A DNA stretch of 64,000 bases from an uncultured Gemmatimonadales bacterium (GTDB lineage Bacteria > Gemmatimonadota > Gemmatimonadetes > Gemmatimonadales > Gemmatimonadaceae): the NCBI GenBank assembly GCA_963707505.1, contig CAVPQB010000006.1, positions 756,581 through 820,580 on the forward strand. The letters are read 5' to 3'. Under the pieces are notes generated by a model. That model did not search any database and was not told the DNA's origin. It was given only the letters and a program-made list of their open reading frames with translations. The number at the start of each line of letters is the position of its first letter. Within the stretch, counting starts at the first letter, position 1. The translations under genes and the position numbers were made by a program. Shown here in pieces: positions 2,389 through 33,878 of the stretch.

Positions 2389-2410
2389 GTCAGGTCCTGC
2401 GCCATACGCC
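2389..2410. repeat. Degenerate family-B left TIR scar
   Basis: GTCAGGTCCTGCGCCATACGCC versus MITE start GTCAGGTCTTGCGCCGTGCGCC at 20203. Confidence 0.55.
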
Positions 2411-2566
2411 CAGCGAAGTCCGCCCTTGACAGGCGGGGTCGATATGTTGAAATTTCACCACGGCTGTTTTTTCAGCATACGGACGACTCCGGCCCCCGGT
2501 TTCGCCCTACCGGCTGGGACGAACAGCGCCGCGCGATACCAGCTCGCGCATTCTTTTTGAGGCATT

Positions 2567-5206
2567 ATGCTGATTTTTCAACATAAATCCGTGCAGTCGT
2601 TCGAATCGGCCCCGTCGAGCAGCCTCGGGCCACTCTCGGCGATGTGCGCGTGGCTCGTCATCAGTATGGCTACGGCACGGCCGCAGGCGATCCAGGCGCA
2701 GCAATCCGCTCCGCCAACCGTCAGCGACAGCAACAGCAGCAGCAACAGGACTGCGGTAGCGACTCGCGCCGAGCACGCGCCGGTGATCGATGGCAAGGAT
2801 GACGATCCGGTCTGGCGCGCTGCGCCAGCGGTTTCGTCGTTCCGCGAGCACGACCCGGTGGAAGACGCCGATCCCCGTTTTCGCACCGAGTTCAAAATTG
2901 CGTACGACAGCCACAACATCTACGTCTTCGTTCGCGCATTCGACAAGGACCCGAAGGCGATACGCACCACGCTCGCACGACGAGACGCGCGTGCGCCGAC
3001 GGATCAGATAATCGTGATGATCGATTCGTATCATGACGGCCGCAGCGGCTTCGAGTTCTGCGTGAGTCCCGGCGGTGTGAAGCGCGACTTCGCCATCTAT
3101 AACGACAACAACGAGGACGGAAGCTGGGACGGCGTGTGGGACGTCGCGACCAGAATAGACTCGCTTGGCTGGACAGCAGAGTACGCGATTCCCATGTCGC
3201 AGCTGGGATTCACGAGCGCGCCGACGCACACGATAGGATTTAGTGTGTGGCGTGATCTGGACCGCTTCAAGGAGAGATTGAGCTGGCCGGGATATCATCC
3301 AAGCAGGAACGGTCTCGTCTCGCAATTCGGAACCGTTACCGGAATCGGTGACGTCGGCTCGACACATCCGCTCGAAGTCGTTCCGTACGTCGTCACGAAG
3401 AACGTCTCGACGACCGGCGCTTCATCCTTCGGTCGGGCGCAACGCGTTTCGGCAGGCGCCGATCTCAAGCTGGGAGTGACGCCGGGACTGCGGCTCACAG
3501 CGGCGATCAATCCCGATTTCGGACAGGTCGAGGCGGATCCATCGGTCCTCAACCTCGGTGCGTTCGAGACGTTCTTCAGCGAGCAGCGCCCATTCTTCGT
3601 CGAAGGGCAGGGACGCTACACGATGAGCCTCAACTGCAATGCGGTCAACTGCAATTCCGAAGGTCTGTTCTATTCGCGTCGCATCGGGCGCACACCGCAG
3701 CTGCTCGGCGCGTACGGCGATCCGGGCTCGCCTACTGCCAGCACGATTCTCGGTGCGGCGAAGCTGAGCGGACGAATCGGAAATTCCATCTCGATCGGCG
3801 CGCTCGATGCGGTGACGGGTCGGGCGGCGGGATCTTTCGACCGTACAATCGAGCCAACGACGAATTACGGTGTGTTGCGCGCTCAACGGGATTTCCGCGG
3901 CGGCGCCAGCAATATCGGGATCATCGCAACGAGCGTGGAGCGAGACAACGACACGTGGACTTCCAATGCGCTGCGCAAGTCCGCGAGCGTGCTGGGAGCC
4001 GACTTCTCGCACAAATTCCTGGCCAACAATTACACGGTGTCCGGCTCGGTGACAGCCAGCGACGTCACAGGAACGCCGGAAGCGATCCTCAGTACACAAA
4101 CCAACGCGGTTCATTACTACCAGCGTCCGGACGGCAAGCTGCGCGTCGACTCGAGCCTCACTTCATTGAACGGAAATTCCGAGGAATTCATTTTCGGAAA
4201 GTACGGCGGCGGAATCACTCGCTTCGAGACGAGCTATCAGCGCCAGTCATCCGGCTACGAAGTCAACGACATCGGCTACCTGCAGCGGGCGGACATACAA
4301 TCATGGAACAACTGGGCAGCGCTCAATTTCTTCAAGCGCACTGCGATCTACAACAGTCTCCGCGTCAACGGAAATTTCTGGAATCGATGGACCAGTGCAG
4401 GCCTGCCGCTGGAGCACGCTCTCAATACCAACGCACACATCGTATTTCACAACAACTGGAGCGCCGGCGCCGGCGGAACAATGGGACAGCTCGGCACGGT
4501 GTACTGTGACCGGTGCGCGCGCGGCGGGCCTGCCATTCGCCAGTCTTCGTACATCTCACCATGGTTCTACATCACCGGTGACGATCGGCGCCGGATCGCG
4601 CCCTCGATATCGGCAAATTTCCAGAGGAGCGACGAGGGCCGGTCGCATTACATGTCGCTCGAGCCAAGTGTCGCAATTCAGGCGACGAGCCAGCTACTGT
4701 TCTCGCTCGACGTCAACGCCGCACGCAACGACGACAACTCGCAGTGGATCGGGAACTTCAGCGACTCGACGAGCAACACGACGCACTATGCGTTCGCGCG
4801 TCTGCATCAGACCACGCTCTCGACATCGGTGCGAGCGACGTATCTCGCGACGCCGAATCTCTCGCTCCAGTTCTACGCGCAGCCATTCGTGTCCAACGGA
4901 TCGTACTCCAATCCGCGCGAATTGAGCTCCACGCCGAGGGCGGCGAGTTATGTCAACAGGTTCGTTGCATACGCGGCACCAGCATCGGCGACGTCTGGTT
5001 TCAGCGACCGCGAGTTCAAGCTGAACGCGGTGGCGCGCTGGGAATACAGACCTGGATCGACGGTGTTCCTCGTATGGACACAGGGCCGGTCGGCTTACGA
5101 CGACTCGCCCGACGTGCGCGGCTGGACGGGGACGTATCCGGCTCTGTTCAAGCTGCGGCCGGACAACACATTCCTTGTAAAGGTGAGCTACTGGCTGAGC
5201 AGGTAA
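2567..5206 (+). CDS. CBM9-like sugar-binding domain plus DUF5916 outer-membrane protein (start may be downstream)
   Basis: APVIDGKDDDPVW, GWTAEYAIP, INPDFGQVEAD, FETFFSEQRPFFVEG, C-terminal VKVSYWL. Confidence 0.85.
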   Translation: MLIFQHKSVQSFESAPSSSLGPLSAMCAWLVISMATARPQAIQAQQSAPPTVSDSNSSSNRTAVATRAEHAPVIDGKDDDPVWRAAPAVSSFREHDPVEDADPRFRTEFKIAYDSHNIYVFVRAFDKDPKAIRTTLARRDARAPTDQIIVMIDSYHDGRSGFEFCVSPGGVKRDFAIYNDNNEDGSWDGVWDVATRIDSLGWTAEYAIPMSQLGFTSAPTHTIGFSVWRDLDRFKERLSWPGYHPSRNGLVSQFGTVTGIGDVGSTHPLEVVPYVVTKNVSTTGASSFGRAQRVSAGADLKLGVTPGLRLTAAINPDFGQVEADPSVLNLGAFETFFSEQRPFFVEGQGRYTMSLNCNAVNCNSEGLFYSRRIGRTPQLLGAYGDPGSPTASTILGAAKLSGRIGNSISIGALDAVTGRAAGSFDRTIEPTTNYGVLRAQRDFRGGASNIGIIATSVERDNDTWTSNALRKSASVLGADFSHKFLANNYTVSGSVTASDVTGTPEAILSTQTNAVHYYQRPDGKLRVDSSLTSLNGNSEEFIFGKYGGGITRFETSYQRQSSGYEVNDIGYLQRADIQSWNNWAALNFFKRTAIYNSLRVNGNFWNRWTSAGLPLEHALNTNAHIVFHNNWSAGAGGTMGQLGTVYCDRCARGGPAIRQSSYISPWFYITGDDRRRIAPSISANFQRSDEGRSHYMSLEPSVAIQATSQLLFSLDVNAARNDDNSQWIGNFSDSTSNTTHYAFARLHQTTLSTSVRATYLATPNLSLQFYAQPFVSNGSYSNPRELSSTPRAASYVNRFVAYAAPASATSGFSDREFKLNAVARWEYRPGSTVFLVWTQGRSAYDDSPDVRGWTGTYPALFKLRPDNTFLVKVSYWLSR

Positions 5207-6917: not shown

Positions 6918-7478
6918 TTATCGAATCGCCTGGCTGGAAATTCGAGCAACGGCAACGACAAGCACTACACTTGCCGCGGACCACTCGAATCGCCGTGACC
7001 TGAAGATCAAGGCTCCAACTGCACATAGAAGAGCGATGGTTCGTACGAGACCGGCGAAATCAATGACGACAGCGCCGCTGGCAGCGATTGCAGCGATCCA
7101 GGTTGCTGTCTGATTGATCGCCAGAATCGTGAGGAACACATCTCTGCTCTTTGCCCATTCGGCGCGCATGTCGAGCCGCCCCGATTCCGGAATGGCTCTC
7201 GGTAATACGCTTGCGGACAGGAGAAACAGCAGGATTGGAAGAACAGCGAGCAGCACATAGTGGCCGACCACACGAGCATTCCGCGAACCGTCCAATCCCG
7301 CACCCACGGCCCACCAGTAATTGAACAGCCACAGCAATGCGATCGTGGCCCACACGAGCGGTAACCAGTCCCACTCGACGTGCTTGCGAGCGTGGATCAG
7401 TCTGTGAAAATTGACGAGCAGATCGGCGATGCCGAGGCCGATGATGATCGAGACGAGAGTTGCCCAATGTTCTGTCAT
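6918..7478 (-). CDS. Uncharacterised multi-pass membrane protein, paralogue 1
   Basis: MTEHWATLVSIIIGLGIADLL...WLPLVW...NYWW...VLP...DMRAEW; similar to ORFs at 20332, 25352, 25965. Confidence 0.8.
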   Translation of the reverse strand: MTEHWATLVSIIIGLGIADLLVNFHRLIHARKHVEWDWLPLVWATIALLWLFNYWWAVGAGLDGSRNARVVGHYVLLAVLPILLFLLSASVLPRAIPESGRLDMRAEWAKSRDVFLTILAINQTATWIAAIAASGAVVIDFAGLVRTIALLCAVGALIFRSRRFEWSAASVVLVVAVARISSQAIR

Positions 7479-7483
7479 ACGAG

Positions 7484-7523
7484 GGGTATTGGGTATTGGG
7501 TCGGGTCGTGCGCCGTGTACGCC
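7484..7523. repeat. Degenerate family-B TIR scar with junction duplication
   Basis: GGGTATT x2 then GGGTCGGGTCGTGCGCCGTGTACGCC; fills nearly the whole intergenic gap. Confidence 0.65.
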
Positions 7524-8544: not shown

Positions 8545-9752
8545 CGCAGATGGGACGCGATGAGCGAGACAGTGGTTTCGGCAGCCGCGATAGTCTGTCT
8601 CAGCATTTCCGGTGCAATGACGAAATCGTCGACGTTTCCGTCACCGCACTGTCCGTTGGGATATGCGCCGAGGATCGAGAAGTAGCTCATGCCCGCCGAG
8701 TCGGCGGCGGTATAATAATACGGCTCGATATGCCCGGGCGGAGTGAGTTCTATGAGGACCGAGCCCGGATGACAGAACACGACATCGGTGAGCGCCGCTC
8801 CGTGCGGACCGATGATGATCTCCGCCTGCGGCAGGAGATCACGGATTGCGTCCGTGCCCGGAATGATCGTCTCGAATCCCGCCGCATCCAGGATCGGAGC
8901 GAGTGCCTCTTCATCGATCAGCGTACGTCTCGACCCTCGTCTGCTAAGAAAAAGACGCCGGCCCTGCTGCGGAACATGCGGCGATCGCGAGCGCCAGAAT
9001 TCGCCGACCCATGTTGGACTGTTGCATCGCAAGCCCGGAAAGGTAGGCGCGATCAGCTGCTCGCATTCCACAATTGAAAAGCTGCTCAGCGCAACCATCT
9101 TCTCCGGTGGGATTCCGCACAGCTGTACGGCAGATTTTCGTCCTTCGGATGACAGATCCGGAACGAGTACGTGCGACACATCGTCCCAGGTGTAGCCGGA
9201 TCGCTCGAACAAGGCGACTCGGGACAGCGCATCGAACATCATGTGACCGTAGTTCGCGGACCACTCCGTACACAGGTTGAGTGTCACGCCCGACAAACGC
9301 GCAGTCGACGCGAGGCTGTCGTGGAGATAGATCGGACATGACCCCACTCGGTATCCATACCAGCTGTGATCGGGAAGATATGTGTCATCCTCGGCGACGA
9401 TCCATCCTTGCGGACTGATCACGCGTGCATTCCGCAGTCGTGCAACGCCTGCCGCCGGCAGGACTGTCGCGACCAGCTCGAGCATCTGCGCAGCGGGATA
9501 GTTGACGCAACGCGGCGCTTGCCTCTCGGCGACGCCAGCCGGAACGACCTCACGCCATTCGGCGCCATGTCGCCGGCAGTATTCCGGAGTGTGAGACCAG
9601 TGCCGGGGCGGCCCGAAGGTTCGCGAGTCCAGAGGCAGCCACTTGCTGCGCTCCGGACTCGCGAACGTGCCAGCGAATCGGCGATAGGTTGCTCCGCCGA
9701 GCTTCCACAACGGGCGCGGAACCAGCGCGCGTAAACCGGGGTCAGAGTGCAC
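8541..9752 (-). CDS. Glycosyltransferase family 61 (DUF563-like); predicted start lies inside a TIR
   Basis: NYGHMMFD, RLFLSRRGSRR, IIGPHGAALTD, LIELTP; 4-bp overlap with the GT2 gene. Confidence 0.8.
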   Translation of the reverse strand: MHSDPGLRALVPRPLWKLGGATYRRFAGTFASPERSKWLPLDSRTFGPPRHWSHTPEYCRRHGAEWREVVPAGVAERQAPRCVNYPAAQMLELVATVLPAAGVARLRNARVISPQGWIVAEDDTYLPDHSWYGYRVGSCPIYLHDSLASTARLSGVTLNLCTEWSANYGHMMFDALSRVALFERSGYTWDDVSHVLVPDLSSEGRKSAVQLCGIPPEKMVALSSFSIVECEQLIAPTFPGLRCNSPTWVGEFWRSRSPHVPQQGRRLFLSRRGSRRTLIDEEALAPILDAAGFETIIPGTDAIRDLLPQAEIIIGPHGAALTDVVFCHPGSVLIELTPPGHIEPYYYTAADSAGMSYFSILGAYPNGQCGDGNVDDFVIAPEMLRQTIAAAETTVSLIASHLR

Positions 9753-10204
9753 TTCTCTGACTCCCGCGATCCTTGCGTGGCCCGCCGATCTTTGCGGGAC
9801 GCGCGCGGCGCCCTAGCGGCGGGCGAATCGCGGGATCCCTGGCACCGAGTGCATTGGCCCCATGACTCGACCAGCGATAATCCTTGCGCTCCGCCACGAT
9901 CCCAGGCGTGACGAGCAGATGAACATGGTTGGTCATGAGCACGTACGCATGCACGGCACAATGTTCCCGCATGGACAGTTCACGCAGAGCTTGCAGGTAA
10001 CGGAGATAGTCCGATTCACGAAAGAAGCACGGCCTGCGATCGTTGCCAGGTTGGATAACGTGCTGCGCGATGCCAGGAATGTCCAGGCGCGGCTGGCGTG
10101 CGATGGTGAAGCTCCTGTGAAGGGAGCCACACAATACTATGGGGCGGCGTCATGCCATTCAGTCGATTGCAACATCTGAAACCGGAATACCGCGCTCTGA
10201 CCCC
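9738..10204 (-). mobile_element. TIR-bounded element (family A) with internally deleted RAYT-like Y1 HUH transposase pseudogene
   Basis: Ends GGGGTCAGAG...CTCTGACCCC; encodes ARQPRLDIPGIAQHVIQPGNDRRPCFF...AYVLMTNHVHLLVTP (HUH) fused to DYRWSSH and a short C-terminus; ATC at 10102-10104 in place of ATG behind an AGGAG RBS; stop codon inside the TIR. Confidence 0.88.
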
Positions 10205-10270
10205 TATTCCCCCATTTTCCCGGCAAACCCTATATTCCAGAGTCTTTCCGACCCACAACCAGCAGGCGCC

Positions 10271-13200
10271 TTGGCGGATCTTCGATCGCGTGTCGAGCAG
10301 TCGTTGTCTGGCAGCTACACTCTTGAGCGCGAACTCGGCGGCGGCGGGATGTCGCGCGTGTTCGTGGCCAGCGAGGACCGCCTCGGCCGACGGGTAGTCG
10401 TCAAGGTGCTGTCGACCGAACTGGCGGCGGCGATGTCGGTGCCGCGGTTCGAGCGCGAAATTCGCGTTGCAGCGTCGCTGCAGCAAGCCAATATCGTACC
10501 GGTGCTCGCGGCCGGCGACATCGACGGCATTCCGTACTATACGATGCCCTACGTCGAAGGTGAGAGTCTCCGCGCGCGGCTGGGCCGCAAGCCGCTCGCC
10601 ATTTCAGAAGTGCTCAGCATACTTCGCGATGTCGCACGCGCGCTGGCGTACGCGCATGAACGCGGAGTGGTTCATCGCGACATCAAGCCGGACAACGTGC
10701 TGCTTTCGGGGCACACCGCCGTAGTCACCGACTTCGGTATCGCGAAGGCGATCGCGGCCGCAGCCGCGAGTCCCACCGGCGCGACACTCACGCAATTGGG
10801 CACCGCCGTGGGGACGCCGGCCTACATGGCGCCGGAACAGGCTGCGGGTGATCCGGCAACCGATCACCGCGCCGATCTCTACGCGTTCGGCTGCATGGCG
10901 TACGAGTTGCTCGCCGGTCGAGCAGTGTTTCCCGACCTCGCACCACACAAGTTGCTGGTCGCGCACATGACGGAGACGCCGACGCCGGTCGCTGATCTGC
11001 GATTGGATTGCCCACCTGCGCTCGCGTCGCTGGTGATGCAGTGCCTGGCGAAGTCGCCCGCCGCGCGGCCGGCAAGTGCCACCGAGCTGCTGCAGCGCCT
11101 GGACAACACCACATCGGGCGCCGGTGGCGTAATGCCCGGGATACTGATCGGCGGACGTCCCATGCTGTGGCGCGCACTCGGGATCTACGTCGCTGCCTTC
11201 ATCGGCGTCGCGATCCTGGCGCGTGCGGCGATCATCGCGATCGGTCTGCCGGACTGGGTCTTTTCCGGCGCACTCGTCGTCATGGCGCTTGGATTGCCCG
11301 TGGTGCTGTTCACCGCGTACACACAGTACATCGCGCGGCGGGTCGCCACGGCGACACCGGTGTACACAGCCGGCGGCACACGGTCGCTCGCCGGCCACGG
11401 AACCATGGCGACCATCGCCATCAAGGCGAGTCCGCACGTATCGTGGCGGCAGACCGCTCGCGGCGGCATCGCGGCCGTGAGCACGTTCGTGCTCCTGATC
11501 GCTGGCTACATGCTGCTCCGAGTCCTCGGCATCGGACCGGCGGGATCGCTGTTCGCCGCCGGGACACTCGCCGCGAATGACAATGTCATAGTTGCCGCGT
11601 TCGACGCGCCGGGCGCTGATTCGTCGCTCGGATCGACCATCGCAGAAGCCGTGAAAACCGGTCTGTCGCAGAGCCGCGCAGTGCACGTCATGCCGACCGC
11701 ATCCGTGGTCGCGGCGCTCGAACAGATGCGGCGGCCGGATACGGCACGCGTCGACTTCACCACCGCGCGCGAGATCGCGCGACGAACCGGCGCGAAGGCG
11801 GTGCTGGCGGGAAGCGTCGTACCGGCGGGAGCGGGTTACGTCATTACGGCCAGACTCGTCGGCGCCGAGAGCGGCAACGATCTCGCGTCATTCAGTGAAT
11901 CGGCAAAGGATGCCGGCGACCTCATCCCCGCTGTCGACCGCGTCACCAAGGAACTGCGACGGAAGATCGGCGAGTCGCTCAAGTCGGTGCGCGAAGCACC
12001 GAGCCTGGACCAGGTAACGACCGCCTCGCTCGGCGCACTCCAGAGTTACACCGCCGGCAACTTCGCCAACGACGTGCAGGCGGACTATCCGGCCGCGATG
12101 CAGCACTACCAGGACGCCATACGGCAGGACAGCACATTTGCCATGGCGCATGTGGAATTGGCGTTCACATTGCAGACGGTGGGTGGACCGGCACGAATGG
12201 CGGAAGCCCGCAGCGAGCTCACCAAAGCGTTCCGGCTCAGCGATCGCCTTCCGGAACGGGAGCTGTACAACGTCCAGGGCGCCTACTACACGTTCGTCGC
12301 ACTCGACCGTCGGCGGGCAATCGCGGCGTTCCGCCGAGCCATCGCGATCGATTCCACCAACACCGATGCGGCCAATTCGCTCGCCGTCACCCTTGCCAGC
12401 GTGCGCGACACGACCGGTGCCGTGCAGATGTACAAGCTCAGCCTCGCTGACGACTCGGCCGATGGGACACTGCTGAGCAACCTGGCTCTCGAATACCTCG
12501 GCATGGGCCGGTACCGGGACGTCGATTCGGTGCTGGCACTGTTCGCCAGCCGTCACGTGCCATTTCCCACCGACGCTATCAGGTATGCCGAGTTCTGGAG
12601 CAAGCATCAATACGATTCAGCAGAACACATCGCGCGCGTCGGCGTGGACCACGCCGACGCGTTCCACGCTGCGAGAGCGCTGAACGGTCTCGCCGCCGTA
12701 GTGCGGCTACGGGGCAGACTGCACGACGCCGCGCGACTGTCCATGCAGTCGAATGCTGCACTGGCCCACGTGGACGGCCACGATCCGAACGCGTACGAGA
12801 TGGCCTACGTCCAGGCCATGACGGACGGCGTGATCCGCGGGAACGCATCGCGCGGAATCGCTGAGCTCGACTCGACACTCCGGGCGCAGCCCATGCCGCC
12901 CGCTTCGGTTGCGCATGTCAATCTGGCCGGGGTCTATGCGCAACTGGGCGCTACTGCAAAGGCACGTGAGTTGTTGAGCCAGTACGAATCCACACTCGAC
13001 TCGCTGACCCGCCGCCAGAGCGCAGTGAATATCATGCGCGTTCGCGCGATGATTGCCATGGCAGACGGAAAGACTGACAGTGCGGTCGCATACTTTCGCC
13101 AGGGTGATGTCCAGCCCGACGGACTTCCGTCCCCCAATTGCGCCGCCTGTACGCTATATGGTATTGGCATTGCCTACGACCGGGGTCATCAGGCCGACTC

Positions 13201-13447
13201 CGCGCGCAAGTACCTGACCGAGTATGTCGACAAGCCAGGCGGCGGTCGCATCACCCCCGATCCGTACTACCTCGCGCTTGCACTCGACCGGCTGGGCGAG
13301 CTCTACCAGAGTGCAGGCGACACCAAGCGCGCCATCATGTACTACAGCCGGTTCGTCGACCTCTGGAAAAACGCGGACCCCGATCTGCAACCGCGCGTCA
13401 GCGACGTACGGAAGCAGATAACAGCGCTGCTGCGCGCGAAGGGGTGA
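10271..13447 (+). CDS. Hanks-type Ser/Thr kinase with TM segments, TolB-N-like and TPR domains
   Basis: LGGGGMSRV, VVVK, HRDIKPDN, DFG, GTPAYMAPE; start taken at TTG 10271 because the ORF-track start lies inside the element. Confidence 0.92.
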   Translation: MADLRSRVEQSLSGSYTLERELGGGGMSRVFVASEDRLGRRVVVKVLSTELAAAMSVPRFEREIRVAASLQQANIVPVLAAGDIDGIPYYTMPYVEGESLRARLGRKPLAISEVLSILRDVARALAYAHERGVVHRDIKPDNVLLSGHTAVVTDFGIAKAIAAAAASPTGATLTQLGTAVGTPAYMAPEQAAGDPATDHRADLYAFGCMAYELLAGRAVFPDLAPHKLLVAHMTETPTPVADLRLDCPPALASLVMQCLAKSPAARPASATELLQRLDNTTSGAGGVMPGILIGGRPMLWRALGIYVAAFIGVAILARAAIIAIGLPDWVFSGALVVMALGLPVVLFTAYTQYIARRVATATPVYTAGGTRSLAGHGTMATIAIKASPHVSWRQTARGGIAAVSTFVLLIAGYMLLRVLGIGPAGSLFAAGTLAANDNVIVAAFDAPGADSSLGSTIAEAVKTGLSQSRAVHVMPTASVVAALEQMRRPDTARVDFTTAREIARRTGAKAVLAGSVVPAGAGYVITARLVGAESGNDLASFSESAKDAGDLIPAVDRVTKELRRKIGESLKSVREAPSLDQVTTASLGALQSYTAGNFANDVQADYPAAMQHYQDAIRQDSTFAMAHVELAFTLQTVGGPARMAEARSELTKAFRLSDRLPERELYNVQGAYYTFVALDRRRAIAAFRRAIAIDSTNTDAANSLAVTLASVRDTTGAVQMYKLSLADDSADGTLLSNLALEYLGMGRYRDVDSVLALFASRHVPFPTDAIRYAEFWSKHQYDSAEHIARVGVDHADAFHAARALNGLAAVVRLRGRLHDAARLSMQSNAALAHVDGHDPNAYEMAYVQAMTDGVIRGNASRGIAELDSTLRAQPMPPASVAHVNLAGVYAQLGATAKARELLSQYESTLDSLTRRQSAVNIMRVRAMIAMADGKTDSAVAYFRQGDVQPDGLPSPNCAACTLYGIGIAYDRGHQADSARKYLTEYVDKPGGGRITPDPYYLALALDRLGELYQSAGDTKRAIMYYSRFVDLWKNADPDLQPRVSDVRKQITALLRAKG

Positions 13448-13460
13448 CGGAACGCGAGCA

Positions 13461-13523
13461 GGCTCGCAGTGCACTGCTCTGGTAAATGCGAACTGAGGCG
13501 TCGGGAAACTCCACTCTGACCCC
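13461..13523. mobile_element. Family-A ~63-bp mini-element, left TIR degenerate
   Basis: AGTGCACT...TGGTAAATGCGA...CCACTCTGACCCC; core shared with 20781 and 24847. Confidence 0.75.
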
Positions 13524-13536
13524 AATTCATCACGCC

Positions 13537-14778: not shown

Positions 14779-14781
14779 GGC

Positions 14782-15501: not shown

Positions 15502-15564
15502 TGAGGAAGATCATACACCTCCCGTTCATTCTGGCAAGCAGGTGCGATTCCGATCGGAATAACC

Positions 15565-15928: not shown

Positions 15929-15998
15929 AATTACCCCAATTACCCATGACTCGGCAATATCTTGTGGGTTACCGTTCCACCTCATACCCGAGACAGCC

Positions 15999-17402: not shown

Positions 17403-17404
17403 AG

Positions 17405-17481: not shown

Positions 17482-17484
17482 TTT

Positions 17485-20691: not shown

Positions 20692-20780
20692 GTACGGATC
20701 CTTTCTCCAGGCAATGGTCACGCAGACGTAGCACGCTGGCTAAGCTGCAAGCTCGAGTATTATGTGGCGCCCGAAAAAAT

Positions 20781-20908
20781 GGGTCGAGTGCACTTCTCAT
20801 GGTATACGCGATGTGTTCGCATCAAGGAAGTCCACTCCAGATACCGGTGTCCGAGTTTGCTGCTGAGTGGTGCCGTCGGCATTGACTGACAGAAGTGTAC
20901 TCTGACCC
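20781..20908. mobile_element. Two tandem degenerate family-A mini-elements
   Basis: GGGTCGAGTGCACTTCTCATGGTATACGCGA...AAGTCCACTCC, then GGTGTCCGAGT...AAGTGTACTCTGACCC. Confidence 0.65.
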
Positions 20909-20935
20909 TGTTTCACTCTCGTTGTAGATACGAGC

Positions 20936-22072: not shown

Positions 22073-22093
22073 CGAGTACTCCGTTTGGTGGAT

Positions 22094-22126
22094 GGCGCGG
22101 CGTTACGGGCGCAAGACTTGACACCC
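22094..22126. repeat. Degenerate family-B right TIR scar
   Basis: GGCGCAAGACTTGACACCC versus GGCGCAAGACCTGACCCC. Confidence 0.65.
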
Positions 22127-22156
22127 AGATCTTCGAATTCCAGCGATCGTCGGCAA

Positions 22157-24802
22157 TCATTTACCCAGTAACGCCGGCCAGTTCTCGACCAACACCGCGG
22201 CGTTCGACGCCGGCGACATGCGCAGCACGAAGCGCGTCCCGTCTCCGTTCACGTCGTACGGCACTCCTGGGTCGAAGAACATCCCGCGCAACCAGCTGGG
22301 CACTCGAAAGAGCATCTGCGGTGTTCCGAGCGCGAGCGTCGCACCTGGCGTAACGGACGTGCTCATCATGCGGCCGTCGGGCGTCTCGAAGTACATTTCG
22401 CGCCCGTCATTGCGCCAGCGCGGACGACGCCCGCCGTTCACCGAAATGCGCGCTGCCTCGCCGGATCGCAGGAACGGTCGCACGTAGATCTCGCTCGCAC
22501 CGGATTCGTCCGACGCGTACGCCAGCCATCGTCCGTCCGGCGAGAGCGCTCCGTCGGCGACATTTCCACCGCTGCCCAGGACGCGAATGGGCCGACCTGC
22601 GGTGAAGTCGTACGCCCAGATCTCTGACCGCGCGAGGGTATCGGCAGTCGATGCAGCGCGCGTCGTCAGGAGATAGCGTCCGTCGCGTGACCAGTCGGTG
22701 GGAAGCGGTGTCCCGCGCGTTCCGGCCATGAGCAATGTGTCTCGCGCCGGTCGCGAGATCGACGCGATGAATTCCGGCGACCCCACTCCCCGTCGTCCCG
22801 GGCTGAAACCGGCCAGCACCGAGTCTCCGGGTCCCCAGACGGGAGAGGAAGCGAGACTCGCGACAACGGTGAGTGTTTTTCGAACCATGTCGTAGATGAT
22901 CACGTGGTCGAAGCCGCCCAGCGCGACCAGTGACTTGCTTCGCGCAATCTGGTGCGTCCATGTGCCGAGCACCGGTATCGTGTCGATGATCTGCCCCTTT
23001 CGATCAGCGACGAGCTTCTCCAGATCACCTTGCGACGGCAGATACGCCAGCGCACCAGTCGCCGAAACCGAGTACGAGAACGTAGCGCCTGCCGAGCGCA
23101 CGCCATCCGCGATGAGCACGCGATCACCGCTGAGAGTCAGTGTGCCCGCGTCGAATCGTTGCGCGACGAGGCGCGACGGCATCCCGGCCCCCGGGAACAC
23201 GCCGTATAACAGGATGTCAGGAAGTACCAGTGTGGGATCCGAGGCCCGTGAGACGAGCTGGCGCCAGGCACCTCCGTTCATGTCTGCTACAAAAACTCCG
23301 GGGGCATCGGATCCGAATCGGACGGAGAAGAGCACGTGTTTGCCGTCCGGAAGCAGGACGGGATGCTCCAGCATCTCCGCGCTGGATGTCGACGTGTGGA
23401 TCGGGACGGCGATCGTGCACGGGCCGCCGTTGGCGGTCGTGCGCTCGATACCGCGGGAGCTCGCGACGAGGATGGTGCCGTCGTCTGCCCAACTTCCATT
23501 CATGCCGCCGTCAATCTTGCAAAGCCCGCGAAGGCCGCCCGTGAGATCGAACCGCCACAACTGATCGTGGGCGAAGAATGCGATCGATTGCCCGTCCGGC
23601 GACCAGAACGGTCCCACGGCGCCGTCCGTACCCGGAAGGGCCACGGCGGTGAGCGAGTCGAGGCGTCTCAGCCAGAGACGCGACTCGCCATGCGGCGAAA
23701 GCAGTACGAACGCGAAACGTTGTCCATCTGGCGAGAGCGCGCCGAAGCTGGATCGCTCACTGAATTCCTGTCCGTCGGGCGGGAGCAGTGACGACATCAC
23801 CAGCGGAGCCGTGCCACCTCGACGTCCACGCAATGACATACCGAGAGCCGCGAGTGCGATCACCGTCATGAGCGCCGCGACGCTCCACGGCAGCCAGCGC
23901 GCGCCCGAGTGCTGTCCCATCGGCACCGAGTGCGTCGCTCGCGTAACGGATCCCGTGGGGCCCGCGAGCGCTCGAGAAAACTCGGTGGCCGATGCGAAAC
24001 GATCAGCGGGAAGTTTCTCCAGCGCGGTCATCACCGCATCAACGACGCACGCTGGAACGCTCTTGCGCTGCGCGACGAGCGAGCGCGGCTCCGTCGTGAT
24101 CACCTGCGCGACGATCGCCTGTGCGGTAGATCCGGTGAATGGCGGATCACCGCTCAGCATCTCGTACGTGACCGCGCCGAGCGAGTAGATGTCGGAGCGA
24201 GGTCCGATGTCACGCTCACCCATCGCCTGCTCGGGTGACATGTACTGTGGAGTGCCGAGTGAAAGGCCGGTCTGCGTCATTCGCTGTCCGCCGGCCTGCT
24301 GTACGGCGAGCGCAATTCCAAAGTCCGCTACGAGCGCGTGCCCGTTCTGCAGCAGGATGTTCTCCGGCTTGATGTCGCGGTGCACGATGCCGCGTCCGTG
24401 GGCGTATGCGAGTGCGTCTGCTGTCTCGCTCGCGATGCGGACTGCGTCAGCAATTGGAAGCTGCTTGTCACGCGTGAGCCGTTCGCGCAGAGTCTCACCT
24501 TCCACGTACGGCATGACGTAAAAGAGCAAACCATCAGCGCTTCCACTGTCAAACAGCGGCAGGATGTGCGGGTGCTGCAGGTTGGCGGTGAGTTCTATTT
24601 CCTTTAAGAACCGTTCCGGGCCGATGATCGCAGAGAGTTCGGCGTGTAGTACCTTGATCGCGACCTTGCGGTGATGCTTGAGATCTTCGGCGAGATACAC
24701 AGTCGCCATTCCGCCCGCACCGAGCTCGCGCTCGATGCGGTATCGGTCGGCCAGGGACGGCTGGAGGCGCGCTGACAGCTGGTCGGGAGCTGACTCGGGC
24801 AT
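22157..24802 (-). CDS. Ser/Thr kinase with C-terminal TolB/PD40 beta-propeller
   Basis: LGAGGMATV, HRDIKPEN, DFG, GTPQYMSPE; LSPDG/WSPDG repeats. Confidence 0.93.
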   Translation of the reverse strand: MPESAPDQLSARLQPSLADRYRIERELGAGGMATVYLAEDLKHHRKVAIKVLHAELSAIIGPERFLKEIELTANLQHPHILPLFDSGSADGLLFYVMPYVEGETLRERLTRDKQLPIADAVRIASETADALAYAHGRGIVHRDIKPENILLQNGHALVADFGIALAVQQAGGQRMTQTGLSLGTPQYMSPEQAMGERDIGPRSDIYSLGAVTYEMLSGDPPFTGSTAQAIVAQVITTEPRSLVAQRKSVPACVVDAVMTALEKLPADRFASATEFSRALAGPTGSVTRATHSVPMGQHSGARWLPWSVAALMTVIALAALGMSLRGRRGGTAPLVMSSLLPPDGQEFSERSSFGALSPDGQRFAFVLLSPHGESRLWLRRLDSLTAVALPGTDGAVGPFWSPDGQSIAFFAHDQLWRFDLTGGLRGLCKIDGGMNGSWADDGTILVASSRGIERTTANGGPCTIAVPIHTSTSSAEMLEHPVLLPDGKHVLFSVRFGSDAPGVFVADMNGGAWRQLVSRASDPTLVLPDILLYGVFPGAGMPSRLVAQRFDAGTLTLSGDRVLIADGVRSAGATFSYSVSATGALAYLPSQGDLEKLVADRKGQIIDTIPVLGTWTHQIARSKSLVALGGFDHVIIYDMVRKTLTVVASLASSPVWGPGDSVLAGFSPGRRGVGSPEFIASISRPARDTLLMAGTRGTPLPTDWSRDGRYLLTTRAASTADTLARSEIWAYDFTAGRPIRVLGSGGNVADGALSPDGRWLAYASDESGASEIYVRPFLRSGEAARISVNGGRRPRWRNDGREMYFETPDGRMMSTSVTPGATLALGTPQMLFRVPSWLRGMFFDPGVPYDVNGDGTRFVLRMSPASNAAVLVENWPALLGK

Positions 24803-24846: not shown

Positions 24847-24924
24847 GGGGTGAGAGTGCACTTCTCCTGGTAAACGCGATCTGGTGGCGTCAGAAGCAAC
24901 GGGACGGAGTGGGGACGGACTCCG
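24847..24924. mobile_element. Family-A mini-element interrupted by a family-C TIR
   Basis: GGGGTGAGAGTGCACTTCTCCTGGTAAACGCGA... then GGGACGGAGT GGGGACGGACTCCG. Confidence 0.7.
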
Positions 24925-26575: not shown

Positions 26576-26739
26576 GGGGTCAGGTCTTGCCCCGTGCGCC
26601 GATCGCGGTCGTTGCAGTGTTTCGCTAAACCGTGCGGCGCTTCAGCCGCAGGATCGGCGAGCACTTCTGTATCCATTATTCGCGCGTGAGCCGGATCGTA
26701 AGCAACACAGAGCGTCAGCGCGCACGGGGCAAGACCCCC
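26576..26739 (+). mobile_element. Family-B MITE with small deletion in right TIR
   Basis: GGGGTCAGGTCTTGCCCCGTGCGC...GCGCACGGGGCAAGACCCCC; interior reads IGEHFCIHYSRVSRIVSNTERQRARGKT. Confidence 0.92.
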
Positions 26740-26760
26740 GGTTTCTCCTGACGCGCGCGG

Positions 26761-29312: not shown

Positions 29313-29359
29313 GGGGACGGAGTGGGGACGGAGTGGGGACGGAGTGGGGACGGACTCCG
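29313..29359. repeat. Family-C TIR with three tandem 11-bp units
   Basis: (GGGGACGGAGT)x3 + GGGGACGGACTCCG; same end as 24901-24924. Confidence 0.85.
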
Positions 29360-29423: not shown

Positions 29424-29591
29424 GGGGTCAGGTCTTGCCCCGTGCGCCGATCCCGGTCATTGCAGCTTTTCGCTACACCGCGCGGCGCGTCGACCGCACG
29501 ATCGGCGGGCGCTTCGGTATCAATTGATCGCGCGTTCGCCGAACGGTAGGCAACTCAGAGCGTCAGCGCGCACAGGGCAAGACCTGACCCC
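29424..29591 (+). mobile_element. Family-B MITE, 168 bp
   Basis: Full TIRs; 2 mismatches to the 30881 copy by manual alignment. Confidence 0.95.
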
Positions 29592-29623
29592 GTTGCCCTC
29601 GGCGTCAATTGGTATCGGGTATC

Positions 29624-29678
29624 GGGGTCAAGCCTTGCGCCGTGCGCCCAATTTCAGGCACGGCGCAAGTATGAATCC
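29624..29678. repeat. Family-B TIR-only hairpin, degenerate
   Basis: GGGGTCAAGCCTTGCGCCGTGC-12 nt-GCACGGCGCAAG (12-bp perfect stem), directly after the rhodanese stop. Confidence 0.75.
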
Positions 29679-30880: not shown

Positions 30881-31048
30881 GGGGTCAGGTCTTGCCCCGT
30901 GCGCCGATCCCGGTCATTGCAGCTTTTCGCTACACCGCGCGCCGCGTCGACCGCACGATCGGCGGGCGCTCCGGTATCAATTGATCGCGCGTTCGCCGAA
31001 CGGTAGGCAACTCAGAGCGTCAGCGCGCACAGGGCAAGACCTGACCCC
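30881..31048 (+). mobile_element. Family-B MITE, 168 bp
   Basis: Direct repeat of 29424-29591, sharing the downstream 10 bp GTTGCCCTCG. Confidence 0.95.
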
Positions 31049-31189
31049 GTTGCCCTCGATAGCGAATGGGAAGCGGTGGGCCGCGGCGCACACGCGGTGA
31101 TCGATGAAGCGAAAGCCACCAGGAACTGCGCGTCTTCGGTCTCGACCAGCAGTCCTGAGGCGCGACACTGAAATGGCGCGGCTGGTGCG

Positions 31190-31249
31190 GCCTTACAATT
31201 CATTCAAGCCCAAGCCGTTGCGCGACTCGGCTTGGTTCAGGCGTCAGGT
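31190..31249 (+). other. Degenerate 60-bp integron attC site
   Basis: GCCTTACAATTCATTCAAGCCCAAGCCGTTGCGCGACTCGGCTTGGTTCAGGCGTCAGGT follows the short Xanthomonadales-type attC pattern; AAC changed to TAC and GTT to GTC. Confidence 0.8.
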
Positions 31250-31285
31250 GACAACAGGCTTCGATCTCTATCAGGGGTGGACAAC

Positions 31286-31798
31286 ATGCACCGGCTATCA
31301 ATCGTCGCTCTCGCACTCCTCTGCTCGCCCGCAGCGTTGTTCGCGCAAGACCCGAAGCCCGACTCGCTATTTCCACGCCTCGTGGGAAATTGGGTACTGC
31401 GCGGTACCATCGCGCGACAGCAGACCATCCATGATGTGACGTTCGAGTGGCTGCTTGGCCGCGAGTACGTTCAGATGCACGAAGTATCTCGCGAGCGTGC
31501 GCCGAATGGCACGCCCGCCTACGAGGCCGTCGTACTGTTCGGACGTGACCCCAAGACCGGCGCTTATGCGTGCGTGTGGATGGACAACACCGCCGCGGCG
31601 GCATTTCCATCCGAGGGCACCGGCCGTGGGACCATCGCAGGCGATTCCATTTCGTTCCTTTTCAACTACACCGCTACGACGAGCTTTCATACGACATTCC
31701 TCTACGACTCGTCGACAGATTCCTGGCGATGGCACATGGACAACGACAGTTCCGGCGTCCGCAGGCCATTCGCACGAGTCACGCTTACCCGGCGGTAG
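31286..31798 (+). CDS. Secreted DUF1579-like beta-rich protein; integron cassette gene
   Basis: Signal peptide; LVGNWVLRG...FEWLLGREY...YACVWMDNT; flanked by attC-like sites. Confidence 0.75.
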   Translation: MHRLSIVALALLCSPAALFAQDPKPDSLFPRLVGNWVLRGTIARQQTIHDVTFEWLLGREYVQMHEVSRERAPNGTPAYEAVVLFGRDPKTGAYACVWMDNTAAAAFPSEGTGRGTIAGDSISFLFNYTATTSFHTTFLYDSSTDSWRWHMDNDSSGVRRPFARVTLTRR

Positions 31799-31813
31799 AC
31801 GCCGGCCGCTGCC

Positions 31814-31918
31814 ACCTAACGAACGTTGACGCAGTTGACTGGCTGCGGTAGCGTGCGGCGCTCTCGGGCATCGCGCCGTTCGCCGTCCACGACCGCTAGC
31901 AACCGCTGGACTTGGGGG
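31814..31918 (+). other. Degenerate attC site, right end lost
   Basis: RYYYAAC box ACCTAAC 15 bp after the stop; GCCACCTAAC is complementary to the cassette-start GTCAGGTGAC at 8/10; imperfect internal hairpin. Confidence 0.6.
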
Positions 31919-31926
31919 TGACTTGG

Positions 31927-32078
31927 GGGGTCGACCAGTGCCGATCTCGCGCACAAGCCCGAGGGCGACCAGGGCCGCGAGTCCGGCGCCGCGGCACGCA
32001 GCGAACATCCAGTACTCGTTACGCCGCGCCAGATGATAAATGCCATTTGCTGGTTTCACTAAAGTCCACTCTGACCCC
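31927..32078. mobile_element. Family-A derivative: intact right TIR, degenerate left TIR
   Basis: AAAGTCCACTCTGACCCC ending 32078; GGGGTC at 31927 preceded by duplicated GACTTGGGGG. Left boundary uncertain. Confidence 0.55.
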
Positions 32079-32086
32079 GTATTCCC

Positions 32087-33559: not shown

Positions 33560-33786
33560 TATCCTGACTCCGATTGCGTTTGATACCGATCGATAATTCC
33601 ATGTCCGCTCCATATTCCAGTCGAGCGACGTTCTGACAGCTATATAGTACCATTGCAGCGACCGACCGGCTGGAATCGCGCCAGGTCGAGTCTGCAATCT
33701 CTCGTCGCGGTCGGCGTGCGCGACGCCAATCGGTTCGGGACGGCGCGTTCATCCCGTGCTGCGGCGATGGTGTGCACGGGGGTGTT

Positions 33787-33878
33787 GGGTCAGGTCTTGC
33801 CCCGTGCACCGCTCCCAGTCAGCGCAGCGTTTCGCTACACCGTGCGGTGCTTCAACCGCAGGATCGGCGAGCGGCTCG
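33787..33878 (+). mobile_element. Family-B MITE, left half only
   Basis: GGGTCAGGTCTTGCCCCGTGCACC...TTTCGCTACACCGTGCGG...GGATCGGCGAGC; homology ends just before the adjacent gene stop. Confidence 0.85.

Follow-up and report, generated by a model that had tools for sequence, protein, structure and literature searches.

The repeats that crowd this locus are best read as copies of known TIRtrons that have colonised an integron-associated plasticity zone, in which they would serve as recombination substrates; we give this reading a probability of roughly 55%. If it holds, the locus would be a well-documented case of known repeats colonising such a zone. The window analysed here (the whole stretch of 64,000 nucleotides) comes from the 3.66-Mb assembly of a soil bacterium, an uncultured member of the Gemmatimonadales, and the repeats occupy a fast-rearranging stretch that adjoins the remains of an integron. 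The genus offers a natural experiment: two TIR families are concentrated in one locus, where rearrangement is much faster than in the flanks, the enzyme is available in intact form, and between close relatives, which are 93-97% identical, events can be traced whose edges lie on TIR tips. It can be tested here whether RAYT-like enzymes spread their own hairpins only or also move neighbouring genes.

Two families of TIRtron repeats

In a TIRtron, inverted repeats enclose a gene for a Y1/HUH "TIRYT" transposase (Di Nocera, De Gregorio & Rocco 2013, PMC3733652), and the TIR motif is GGGGWSAS (PMC3733652, PMC6006769); TIRYT proteins form subclass 2.1 of TnpA-REP and carry a C-terminal helix-turn-helix (Quentin et al. 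2018, PMC6006769). The window contains two repeat families that share the tip GGGGTCAG, A (GGGGTCAGAGTGCACTT) and B (GGGGTCAGGTCTTGCSCCGTGCGC), the family-B TIR being GGGGTCAGGTCTTGC[CG]CCGTGCGC. The tips of both families begin with GGGGTCAG and fit GGGGWSAS, and the mention of TIRtrons in an earlier, sequence-only reading of this DNA was correct.

An intact family-B element of 1,004 bp (C6:581999-583002) lies 175 kb upstream of the window on the same contig and encodes a 298-aa protein that matches Y1_Tnp (E 8e-12) and NCBIfam REP_Tyr_transpos (86.8 bits, cut-off 80). For family A, the source assembly holds a remnant only, and the intact element was found only in a congener (G015:C5:401255-402070, 816 bp, 236 aa; Y1_Tnp E 4.6e-15; NCBIfam 73.7 bits, under the cut-off of 80). 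The intact transposases with the same TIRs that the sequence-only reading had called for thus exist in the same genome for B, but only in a congener for A. In both elements the gene is framed by TIRs and not by REP hairpins, and both proteins have the features of RAYT-type Y1 HUH tyrosine transposases, with HYH and HVH motifs and a YRYI..LNPVRA stretch visible in the enzyme sequences. A C-terminal helix-turn-helix is only weakly matched in the B enzyme (HTH_28 E 3.9e-4 and HTH_23 E 6.2e-4, both below Pfam cut-offs), and the Pfam profile search gave no HTH match for the A enzyme. The A and B repeats are non-autonomous derivatives of two TIRtron families. Copies that are 98% identical, presence or absence between relatives and an intact ORF are indirect signs that TIRYT may move them.

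The family-A TIR occurs at 9738, 10204 (-), 13523 (-), 15565, 15928 (-), 17410/17476, 20909 (-), 24847 and 32078 (-). The family forms palindromic doublets of 50-80 bp with the outer consensus AAACC-GGGGTCAGAGTGCACTTT...GGTTT, AAACC being present in the outer flanks of 15/29 doublets and GGTTT in 8/29. Its elements in the window, followed by a separate tandem repeat, are:

9738..10204 (-), family-A TIRtron remnant of 467 bp, left TIR with 0 and right TIR with 4 mismatches
13461..13523 (no strand), decayed family-A doublet, flanked by the STK-TPR gene and the 413-aa gene, right TIR with 2 mismatches
15565..15928 (-), internally deleted family-A element of 364 bp, TIRs with 0 and 1 mismatch
17405..17481 (no strand), perfect family-A doublet (REPIN-like hairpin, palindrome) between the M19 dipeptidase and zincin genes
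20781..20909 (no strand), decayed family-A dimer downstream of the aminotransferase gene, right TIR with 2 mismatches, fold z -3.2
24847..24892 (+), family-A half element upstream of STK-PD40, 1 mismatch
32062..32078 (-), solo family-A TIR, 9 bp from the M28 peptidase gene, 1 mismatch
24901..24924 (+), 11-bp tandem repeat GGGGACGGAGT, two units, family D9, 5' of a kinase gene
29313..29359 (+), 11-bp tandem repeat GGGGACGGAGT, four units, D9, 5' of STK-TPR2

The remnant at 9738..10204 is 84% identical to the intact element of G015 and retains a truncated TIRYT ORF on the minus strand (9742-10134) that matches Y1_Tnp at profile positions 6-58. Both ends of the element at 15565..15928 repeat those of this remnant (D8, D10), which bears out the claim that the two transposase remnants are co-oriented. 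The perfect doublet has 32-nt arms that are 100% complementary (ssDNA fold -41.6 kcal/mol, z -14.4), and a T7 run directly after its 32-bp stem gives it a terminator-like form. The doublet at 13461..13523 has lost its fold (z +0.05), and the left part of the dimer matches 24854-24892 (D14). The four-unit copy of the tandem repeat, which forms a weak hairpin (z -1.4), is also found in G018.

Family B is represented by the following elements:

2386..2409 (+), weak solo family-B TIR scar, 5/23 mismatches to the B TIR
7478..7520 (+), weak family-B TIR scar with 5 mismatches, preceded by tandem GGGTATT GGGTATT
20200..20368 (+), family-B MITE of 169 bp, 24-nt TIRs 100% complementary, fold z -6.3
22102..22125 (-), solo TIR scar resembling family B, matched at 22111, which separates the aminotransferase gene from STK-PD40
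26576..26745 (+), family-B MITE with decayed right tip (repeats D1-D3, inverted repeat I9)
29424..29592 (+), family-B MITE, left copy of a direct pair (D1, 184 nt, 98%; I4)
29624..29672 (+), family-B TIR variant folded on itself into a short hairpin, 2 mismatches, fold z -4.0
30881..31049 (+), family-B MITE, right copy of the direct pair (D1, I5)
33786..33872 (+), left half of a family-B MITE (D2 copy, 85%), TIR with 2 mismatches

As the sequence-only reading had stated, all five family-B MITE copies (20200, 26576, 29424, 30881 and 33786; repeat family D2, 81-100% identical) have the same orientation. At 20200/20368, 29423/29592 and 30880/31049, the complementarity of their 24-25-nt arms is 96-100%. 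The 169-bp copies, including that at 20200..20368, share both their left and right ends with the 1,004-bp element, as MITEs do with their parent; the family-B MITEs of 40-169 bp arise by internal deletion of this element. No target-site duplication was seen by eye in the flanks of 17 complete B copies, as is expected for single-strand HUH elements.

Clustering and gene cargo

The long A and B repeats are clustered in the window. A relaxed TIR scan gave 22 matches there, 21 of them at positions 1-34000, compared to 0-4 in 20 shuffles; with a stringent scan, 18 of the 52 matches in the assembly fall within window positions 1-34000, where 0.5 would be expected, and the reversed motif gave 0 matches. 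Contigs C6 and C1 together carry 45 of these 52 matches. Clustering extends to congeners, with 34 of the 51 family-A pattern matches of G020 on one 146-kb contig and 15 of the 24 of G015 at C5:360-407 kb. Most elements of the window sit at most tens of bases from gene ends. The genome-wide mapping and this position next to gene starts and stops agree with the sequence-only reading, which had counted about 18 GGGG(T/A)C-TIR elements or scars in 32 kb. The longer repeats are real; the hexamer GGGGWC by itself is not enriched (58 matches vs 61.9 in shuffles). Among the 19 positions it had listed, 15 are A or B TIRs or scars, including the weak ones at 2389 and 7498 (5 mismatches of 23), whereas 24911 and 29346, listed there as TIR elements or scars, belong to the separate tandem repeat GGGGACGGAGT, and 20846 and 31927 are weak matches seen by eye; three TIRs (10204, 15928 and 32078) had been missed.

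The genes between these elements form the following array:

10139..24802 (no strand), gene blocks whose order differs in congeners (Pfam matches; order and orientation compared to G020:C3, G015:C5 and G016:C9): STK-TPR, 413-aa and 239-aa genes, M19 dipeptidase, met-zincin (frameshifted), aminotransferase and STK-PD40

The cargo had been described as including recurrent paralogues, a truncated gene and a decayed duplicate, and all three were recovered: three Ser/Thr kinase paralogues in the window (Pfam), a met-zincin gene split into at least three ORFs (829-863 aa in relatives) and a partial copy of the methyltransferase gene (6299-6425 vs 24937-25063, 83%). The direct B pair at 29424 and 30881 (98% identical) encloses rhodanese and ArsR-type genes; no TIRs adjoin the orthologue of this gene pair in G009.

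Gene order and its breakpoints

Comparison of the homologous locus in G020, G015 and G016 revealed the same genes in different orders. The source genome (G000) and G015 are collinear over ~20 kb upstream, with 93-99% amino-acid identity, and mosaic thereafter; several moves separate G016 from G015 (93-96% identical) over 17 kb; and the seven blocks common to G000 and G020 are permuted in order with their strand kept in 7/7 cases. Relatives thus do not keep a constant gene order in which only the repeats vary, part of the outcome that the sequence-only reading had named as its refutation. It appears very improbable that much of the shuffling reflects misassembly at repeats in genomes derived from metagenomes. 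The genomes are indeed incomplete and in several contigs, some stringent TIR matches are close to contig ends (C1:2311-3191, C4:2703-2784 and C6:3447), and the zincin gene has many 1-nt differences from related contigs. However, orders differ in every pairwise comparison of four assemblies with contigs of 17-820 kb, the repeats measure merely 50-170 bp, and an alternative joint is common to two runs of one study.

TIR repeats mark many gene-order breakpoints: 17 of 54 breakpoints are near a TIR compared to 22 of 122 ordinary gene ends (~2-fold, Fisher p 0.04), and homology often stops within a few bases of a tip (13523, 15911 and 24843). Homology to G020 ends exactly at the outer tip 13523 and 4 bp before the half element at 24847..24892, and that to G015 (6917-7515) stops at the scar at 7478..7520 and begins at 32026, near the solo TIR at 32062..32078. 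In G018, another gene and a family-A doublet that abuts 26669 replace the left half of the MITE at 26576..26745, and in metagenome contigs of runs X2 and X4, 63 different letters replace 22111-22135. Synteny with G015 is unbroken at the scar at 2386..2409.

It is distinctly unlikely that the repeats are mere passengers, confined like the rearrangements to dispensable DNA and perhaps kept as terminators. A cruder gene-adjacency test was not significant, for 29 of the 54 breakpoints neither genome has a TIR within 60 bp (in G015, for example, a methyltransferase/hydrolase swap and the loss of most of the DUF5916 gene are TIR-free), one doublet at a conserved junction is present in G015 and absent in G020, and the hairpins resemble terminators. 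Passengers would nevertheless account poorly for the ~2-fold enrichment near TIRs, for the ends of homology at tips and for the joins of tips to foreign DNA in close relatives.

Junctions at the tips

At several junctions, a TIR tip is joined to unrelated, non-repeat DNA, which homologous exchange between repeats does not explain; likewise, exchange between palindromic repeats would not be expected to leave the orientation unchanged in 7/7 blocks. In G015, a 2.2-kb insertion has a family-A tip as its right edge and no TIR at its left edge, and a doublet with its usual flank abuts the interior of a truncated intI; in G018, a third such join places a family-A doublet against the middle of a B MITE. 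At one gene end, G016 has an A doublet where G015 has a B tip, and the 3' end of the zincin gene, compared by eye in seven genomes, is followed by a doublet of family A, a solo TIR of family B or a hairpin of the B core, with five different neighbour genes. Outside 11 of 107 tips, at a distance of 5-25 nt, there is a further GGGGT, compared to 0.7% of random genome positions, a control that is mostly coding and not intergenic DNA. No clean filled-versus-empty pair defining a target site was obtained. Four junctions fit one fixed element end and one variable end, and deletions started at hairpins would look alike.

In the model built on the sequence-only reading, TIRYT would act in trans, cutting single-stranded hairpins at the GGGGTCAG tip and rejoining them to other tips or tip-like sequences, so that genes are permuted and tip-adjacent genes are excised or inserted, possibly one-endedly as by IS91/ISCR. 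The one-sided junctions, the kept orientation, the substitution of A and B tips at the same gene ends, the tandem tips, the direct B pair around two genes whose G009 orthologue lacks MITEs, and the intact B enzyme all favour this model, which we nonetheless hold to be unlikely. No gene block copied elsewhere with two TIR ends was found, metagenome contigs, which covered small shares only, yielded no gene-carrying circles or excision joints, the excision footprint GGGGTCGACCCC is not enriched, the family-A enzyme is not intact in the assembly, and breakpoints are only ~2-fold enriched, more than half of them lying away from any TIR. The interpretation in the sequence-only reading is supported in part: the TIRtron identity, the clustering and the changing gene order hold, and a role of TIRs as sites at which an HUH enzyme adds and deletes genes is putative. 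In addition, the available parts of PMC3733652 and PMC6006769 describe no demonstrated activity or role and no biochemical test for any TIRYT or TIRtron. It is rather doubtful that GGGGTCAG tips are true recombination sites at which TIRYT nicks DNA and joins tips or G-runs, with genes moving one-endedly and keeping their strand. Such a second, HUH-based cassette system would share its locus with a classical integron and would have destroyed the G015 integrase.

The integron neighbourhood

The locus is the neighbourhood of the chromosomal integron of the genus, whose intI has been lost in the source genome: a profile search revealed no integron integrase in the window, contig C6 or the genome. 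In G016, an intact integrase (C9:9419-10360, TIGR02249 414 bits, cut-off 265) lies beside the zincin orthologue. Among 22 genomes of the genus (a tally in which the unpublished G007 and G017 count as non-matching rows), intI is intact in four (G016 and three others), frameshifted in G012 and, in G015, reduced to a remnant of 56 aa. The homologous locus of G016 has attC cassettes, their attC sites called by eye, that are interleaved with family-A hairpins; one attC folds as expected (z -4.0). Two remnants of such an array are present in the window:

31054..31160 (+), integron-array ORF remnant, two pieces of G016:C9:15691-16032 (sequence identity)
31232..31863 (+), the "ex-integron cassette", a 188-aa ORF with a decayed half-site after it (31815-31863) that resembles the 5' half of an attC (identity to G016)

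The first is 87% and 91% identical to G016 15735-15801 and 15989-16034. In the second, which the sequence-only reading had correctly picked out as a former cassette, the half-site at 31815-31863 matches the 5' half of an attC candidate of G016 (14714-14762) with 78% identity (E 6e-4) and has no attC-like fold (z +0.5); the 188-aa ORF occurs in other contexts beside family-A TIRs (G015:C2 and G016:C6). This decayed half is the only attC site found bounding window units, the other separators being TIRtron repeats; a heuristic attC scan was uninformative (0 in the window vs 1-5 in shuffles). Since the intact G016 integrase lies beside the zincin orthologue, the term "integron-like array" partly describes a real, decayed integron neighbourhood.

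That the integron integrase uses family-A hairpins as surrogate attC sites, with AAC/GTT at the stem base and hairpin-bounded genes as cassettes, is scarcely credible. In the G016 array, family-A doublets do occupy the places expected of attC sites, and their AAACC and GGTTT flanks would supply the stem base. However, attC recognition needs extrahelical bases and family-A stems are perfect, the flanks read RRR-AAC...GTT-YYY instead of RYYYAAC...GTTRRRY, and arrays are retained in G020, G015 and G000, none of which has an intact intI.

A possible course of events

According to the preferred reading, that of known repeats colonising a plasticity zone, A and B elements would have colonised a fast-rearranging accessory locus and would keep turning over in it. 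New copies may land beside existing tips or tip-like G-runs and may be tolerated in this DNA, where bidirectional terminator-like hairpins are perhaps even useful; both would lead to pile-up. Gene order would change through general processes: copies in the same orientation would exchange by homologous recombination, long palindromes would break, ends would be joined illegitimately, and the integrase would have acted in the past. The repeats would be frequent substrates of these processes and not the sites of a dedicated HUH cassette machine.

Comparison with known systems

The window elements resemble published TIRtrons by their RAYT-like Y1/HUH transposase framed by GGGGWSAS TIRs (here GGGGTCAG) and by TIR families dispersed as singles, dimers and groups. 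They differ by the concentration of 18/52 copies within 34 kb of one hypervariable locus, by the presence of two families in this locus, one taking the place of the other at the same gene ends, and by interleaving with integron cassettes in a congener, three features that the available parts of PMC3733652 and PMC6006769 do not describe. The literature searched yielded no publication joining "integron", "attC" and "REP-associated tyrosine transposase".

The REPIN-RAYT systems and BIMEs consist of inverted doublets that fold into long hairpins and are presumably mobilised by a Y1 enzyme encoded in single copy. REPINs have hundreds of copies genome-wide and a GTAG tag. The inverted hairpin doublets, intergenic position and terminator-like form are common to both systems, whereas here there are ~50 copies, almost all on two contigs (45/52), with GGGGTCAG tips. 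The rolling-circle enzymes of IS91/ISCR are Rep-like HUH proteins with two tyrosines, act on distinct ori and ter ends and can carry neighbour genes. An HUH enzyme is common to both cases; IS91/ISCR inserts have one precise end, the other being variable, an arrangement that four junctions here may reflect. The enzyme here is, however, of the Y1 IS200/RAYT type, with inverted ends, and is not Rep-like.

Integron-bracketing MITEs of Acinetobacter are reportedly of DDE type with target duplications, unlike the B copies, in which none was seen. In the available part of PMC3934969, a 439-bp MITE pair brackets a Tn402-like integron, two identical direct MITEs around cargo that may be compared to 29424 and 30881.

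Finally, the locus shares with chromosomal integrons an array of gene units with hairpin separators, a unit order that varies between relatives, and, in G016, a homologous locus with a real intI and at least one credible attC. Chromosomal integrons consist of short gene units separated by hairpin-forming attC sites, and attC clusters without integrase occur; the units of the window, in contrast, reach 3.3 kb, lie on both strands and are separated by TIRtrons, with no intI. The mixture of attC cassettes with transposase hairpins, together with an integrase truncated at a hairpin, makes this locus relevant to the decay of integron arrays.

Repeat families and their enzymes

Window positions 1-34000 carry a dense cluster of terminal inverted repeats (TIRs) from two families, A (TIR GGGGTCAGAGTGCACTT) and B (TIR GGGGTCAGGTCTTGC[CG]CCGTGCGC), of TIRtrons, i.e., Y1/HUH "TIRYT" transposase genes framed by TIRs. 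A reading of the sequence alone had counted about 18 TIR elements in this array; the longer TIRs are real, but the bare hexamer GGGGWC is not enriched in the window (58 matches compared to 61.9 expected). A relaxed TIR scan gave 22 window matches, of which 21 precede the 34-kb mark, compared to zero to four in 20 shuffles. The stringent scan, whose reversed-motif control gave no match, found 52 matches in the whole source assembly, G000 (37 on contig C6, which ends with the window, eight on C1 and seven on the remaining 2.6 Mb). It corroborated the proposed clustering, since 18 of these 52 lie in window 1-34000 (expected: 0.5 at the genome-wide rate and 1.5 at the C6 rate). The family-A pattern is also clustered in congeners: 34 of 51 matches lie on one 146-kb contig in G020 and 15 of 24 at C5:360-407 kb in G015. 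Among the 19 coordinates first proposed, 15 mark ends or scars of A or B elements, but 20846 and 31927 are weak, and 24911 and 29346 belong to a separate repeat:

11-bp tandem repeat GGGGACGGAGT: two units at window 24901-24924, four units at 29313-29359; short hairpin at the end.

This repeat, also found in G018, lies at both loci 5′ of paralogous Ser/Thr kinase genes. A third TIR family, "C", was rejected because of this location and because neither an inverted partner nor an enzyme was found; the repeat may be regulatory rather than a mobile end.

Family-B elements fall into size classes of 40-46, 96-97 and 166-169 bp, besides one 1,004-bp element (C6:581999-583002) that provides the intact transposase with the same TIRs. 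Its 298-aa protein has an HYH motif, a Y1_Tnp match and a weak C-terminal HTH, and passes the NCBI model for REP-associated tyrosine transposases. Both ends of this element recur in the 169-bp copies, which are therefore internal-deletion derivatives (MITEs). All five window copies are co-oriented, as had been noticed, but the other C6 copies, whose strands were judged from flank contexts, are divided three versus four, and the strand rule was dropped. Of the family-A enzyme, 33% identical to the B enzyme, the window has a remnant (9738-10204, matching Y1_Tnp positions 6-58), whereas G015 has it intact (816-bp element, 236 aa). The enzyme family is very large, with at least 7,936 of the 8,000 candidates scored reaching E ≤ 1e-20. 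The closest named homologue of the transposase (85% identity) is from a Gemmatimonadaceae bacterium, a single-protein label rather than a genome classification. A third, weak Y1_Tnp match (G000 C4:657071-657238; 20.4 bits, below cut-off; 302-aa open frame) may mark a further RAYT-like gene whose ends differ. By eye, the flanks of 17 complete B copies have no target duplication, and the excision footprint GGGGTCGACCCC is not enriched (seven genome-wide matches at ≤1 mismatch, none intergenic-looking near C6 elements).

Family-A doublets, palindromic pairs of A TIRs, fold into long hairpins; that at 17403-17487 forms a 32-bp stem (-41.6 kcal/mol, z -14.4) with T7 after it. The B MITE fold reaches z -6.3. 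The outer flanks of 29 A doublets from three genomes include AAACC (15/29) and GGTTT (8/29), giving the doublets a bidirectional terminator-like form. An extra GGGGT occurs 5-25 nt outside 11 of 107 tips (outermost TIR ends), compared to 0.7% of random genome positions, a control made mostly of coding DNA. Some tips are repeated in tandem:

Tip with a few adjoining bases, repeated in short tandem just outside element ends: window 29404-29423, 30861-30880, 20186-20199, 7478-7496 and 15929-15945.

Such copies, for example GGGGTC-N8-GGGGTCAGG and CCCCAATTA CCCCAATTA, are enriched genome-wide and might reflect how the elements insert or serve as extra binding sites.

Gene order and breakpoints

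As the sequence-only reading had supposed, gene order is not kept in relatives (G020, G015 and G016). G000 and contig C3 of G020 have seven common blocks, 82-93% identical and all on the same strand (7/7), that follow the order D..B-C-G-E..F in place of B-C-D-E-F-G; almost every gap in G020 is filled by a family-A doublet (13 doublets in 30 kb). With G015:C5, collinearity (93-99% protein identity, hardly any TIRs) extends over about 20 kb upstream of the window, and the map turns mosaic from about -7 kb onwards. Several moves inside 17 kb separate G016 from G015 (93-96% identity). The gene encoding a met-zincin has five different 3′ neighbours in seven genomes and, by eye, an A doublet, a B solo TIR or a B-core hairpin at each of these junctions. 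Further upstream, an M19 dipeptidase orthologue is inverted and devoid of TIRs in G015 (C5 345309-346736), exactly where G000 holds three other genes between two 96-bp family-B doublets (window -31243 to -27939).

At the DNA level, 54 homology breakpoints were placed over 82 kb (24 with G020 and 30 with G015). TIRs lie within 60 bp of 25 of them in either genome and of 17 in G000; among the 122 gene ends called over this 82 kb, the figure is 22 (odds ratio 2.1, Fisher p 0.04 for 17/54). The breakpoints are non-independent, and breakpoints and TIRs are both restricted to the same domain. In the mosaic part only, the proportions are 14/32 and 17/66 (p 0.06). A gene-adjacency Fisher test that relied on crude gene calls reached no significance (p 0.31-1.0) and was set aside for these breakpoints because spurious small ORFs and split genes swell its "broken" class. 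Some rearrangements have no recognisable TIR: a methyltransferase/hydrolase gene swap and, in G015, the loss of most of the DUF5916 gene. The breakpoints thus track the repeats less tightly than the map suggests. Against the proposal that TIRs are sites at which an HUH enzyme supplied in trans adds, deletes and reshuffles genes stand the modest, about 2-fold size of the enrichment near TIRs and the 29 of 54 breakpoints that lie more than 60 bp from any TIR in either genome. General recombination at and around TIRtron repeats has, in our estimate, a slightly better than even chance (about 0.55) of explaining most of the data on rearrangement. It is quite unlikely that the repeats are pure passengers, a reading that the TIR-free rearrangements favour and the same odds ratio weakens.

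Individual junctions bear on the mechanism. In G015, a 2.2-kb insertion parts two genes that adjoin each other in G000. On the right it is bounded by an A tip, GACCCC, where the empty site of G000 has GACGCC; on the left no TIR marks its edge. In G018, an A doublet is joined directly to the middle of a B MITE beside the Ser/Thr kinase gene STK-TPR2, and 4.7 kb (G000 29405-34117) are missing; a B end is 20 bp away from one edge of this stretch, while its second edge falls within an ORF. A module of two genes in G015 has at one end an A doublet, complete with the customary flank, and this end is joined to the inside of the integron integrase gene intI at its conserved F-A-T-H stretch; in G016, the same module lies 1.8 kb downstream of an intact intI. 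The other end of this module is an A doublet in G016 and a B tip plus a tip-like remnant in G015. Such joins of tips to foreign DNA, together with the kept orientation of moved blocks, would fit an enzyme-driven, one-ended mobilisation of neighbouring genes, which we nevertheless consider unlikely. Between the B MITEs at 29424 and 30881 lie rhodanese and ArsR-type genes whose G009 orthologue has no adjoining TIRs; the two MITEs show 98% identity, a figure that takes in about 10 bp past the right tip.

Population data came from Logan contigs of soil metagenomes (four runs, shares ≤0.18), a cover unsuited to circles or excisions, in which uncovered stretches carry no weight. In two runs of one study, X2 and X4, the inner B-TIR end at 26598 is joined to 17404, 6 bp before an A doublet, with 37 letters between; a related population may have yet another gene order, or the contigs may be chimeric. 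Metagenome contigs also show a 63-letter replacement at scar 22111.

The integron neighbourhood

Downstream of its zincin orthologue, G016 has an intact integron integrase (414 bits against a cut-off of 265), in which the integron-specific insertion can be seen. Its array and the related traces in the window are as follows:

G016:C9 (L025) 9365-16122: intact intI, then, in the same direction, an integron array of ORFs between attC-like sites and A doublets, ending at the M28 peptidase orthologue.
G016:C9 12095-12160, 13150-13233, 13788-13869 and 16045-16110: family-A doublets in this array.
Window 31054-31160, near M28: pieces of a G016 array ORF (87-91% identity).
Window 31815-31863, near M28: decayed attC half after a 188-aa ORF (78% identity).

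The best attC of G016 (11186-11293) has the expected fold, with TCTAAC paired with GTTAAG (z -4.0), and two others are less canonical. The decayed half supports the former integron cassette recognised from sequence alone; it was found by eye, regexes built from G016 attC halves having missed it. A heuristic attC scan was uninformative (none in the window, two inside genes in G016, one to five in shuffles). Since the window keeps remnants of the G016 array next to M28, its zincin-M28 stretch, 12 kb of larger genes with TIRtron repeats between them, corresponds to the cassette array of the relative.

Across 22 genomes of the genus, counting the unpublished G007 and G017 as negatives, intI is intact in four; it is frameshifted in G012, reduced to a 56-aa remnant in G015 and absent from G000. 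The integron neighbourhood of G003 has no DNA in common with the window and only four TIR elements in 40 kb; therefore, the integron link holds for the G016/G015/G000 locus and not for every integron of the genus. That the integrase acts on the doublet hairpins, which stand among the attC-like sites of G016, is very unlikely.

Genomic setting and assembly

The source assembly (3.66 Mb in six contigs, 83% complete, 61% G+C) ends its 820-kb contig C6 with the 64 kb of the window. C6 and C1 (1.03 Mb together, 45/52 TIR matches) might be one secondary replicon. TIR matches lie a few kb from contig ends at C1:2311-3191, C4:2703-2784 and C6:3447, and within about 13 kb of the C3 end at C3:826226-829194; the assembly may therefore break at further TIR clusters. 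G+C falls to about 55-58% past window position 34,892, and positions 34,893-44,999, the span searched from that point on, have no match in 21 congeners at E ≤ 1e-30.

Window 34900-64000, accessory genes and fragments: MacB/FtsX permease, full M13 peptidase, truncated M13 peptidase, LytTR two-component pair.
Window 34900-64000, gene fragments: CHASE3 fragment, outer-membrane-barrel fragment.

This part has the appearance of strain-specific DNA in decay at the end of the contig. The met-zincin gene (DUF5117 + DUF4953, window 17488-20098) is broken into at least three ORFs, compared to 829-863 aa in G020 and G015, and differs from related metagenome contigs by eight single-base indels; it is either a pseudogene or the product of assembly consensus errors. 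The STK-PD40 kinase gene of G020 has a similarly split appearance. Assembly artefacts are a very unlikely source of the rearrangements.

Comparison with known systems

The crowding of repeats in an integron-associated plasticity zone, together with the tandem tips and with repeats that are exchanged at fixed gene ends, suggests that new copies insert beside existing tips; clusters would then arise by themselves. In the literature searched, no paper joined integron, attC and REP-associated tyrosine transposase, and none was listed that dealt with TIRYT repeats within cassette arrays or with genes being shuffled at such repeats. The elements themselves are known: they have the TIRtron/TIRYT architecture with the motif GGGGWSAS described by Di Nocera et al. 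2013 (PMC3733652), which corresponds to TnpA-REP subclass 2.1 of Quentin et al. 2018 (PMC6006769).
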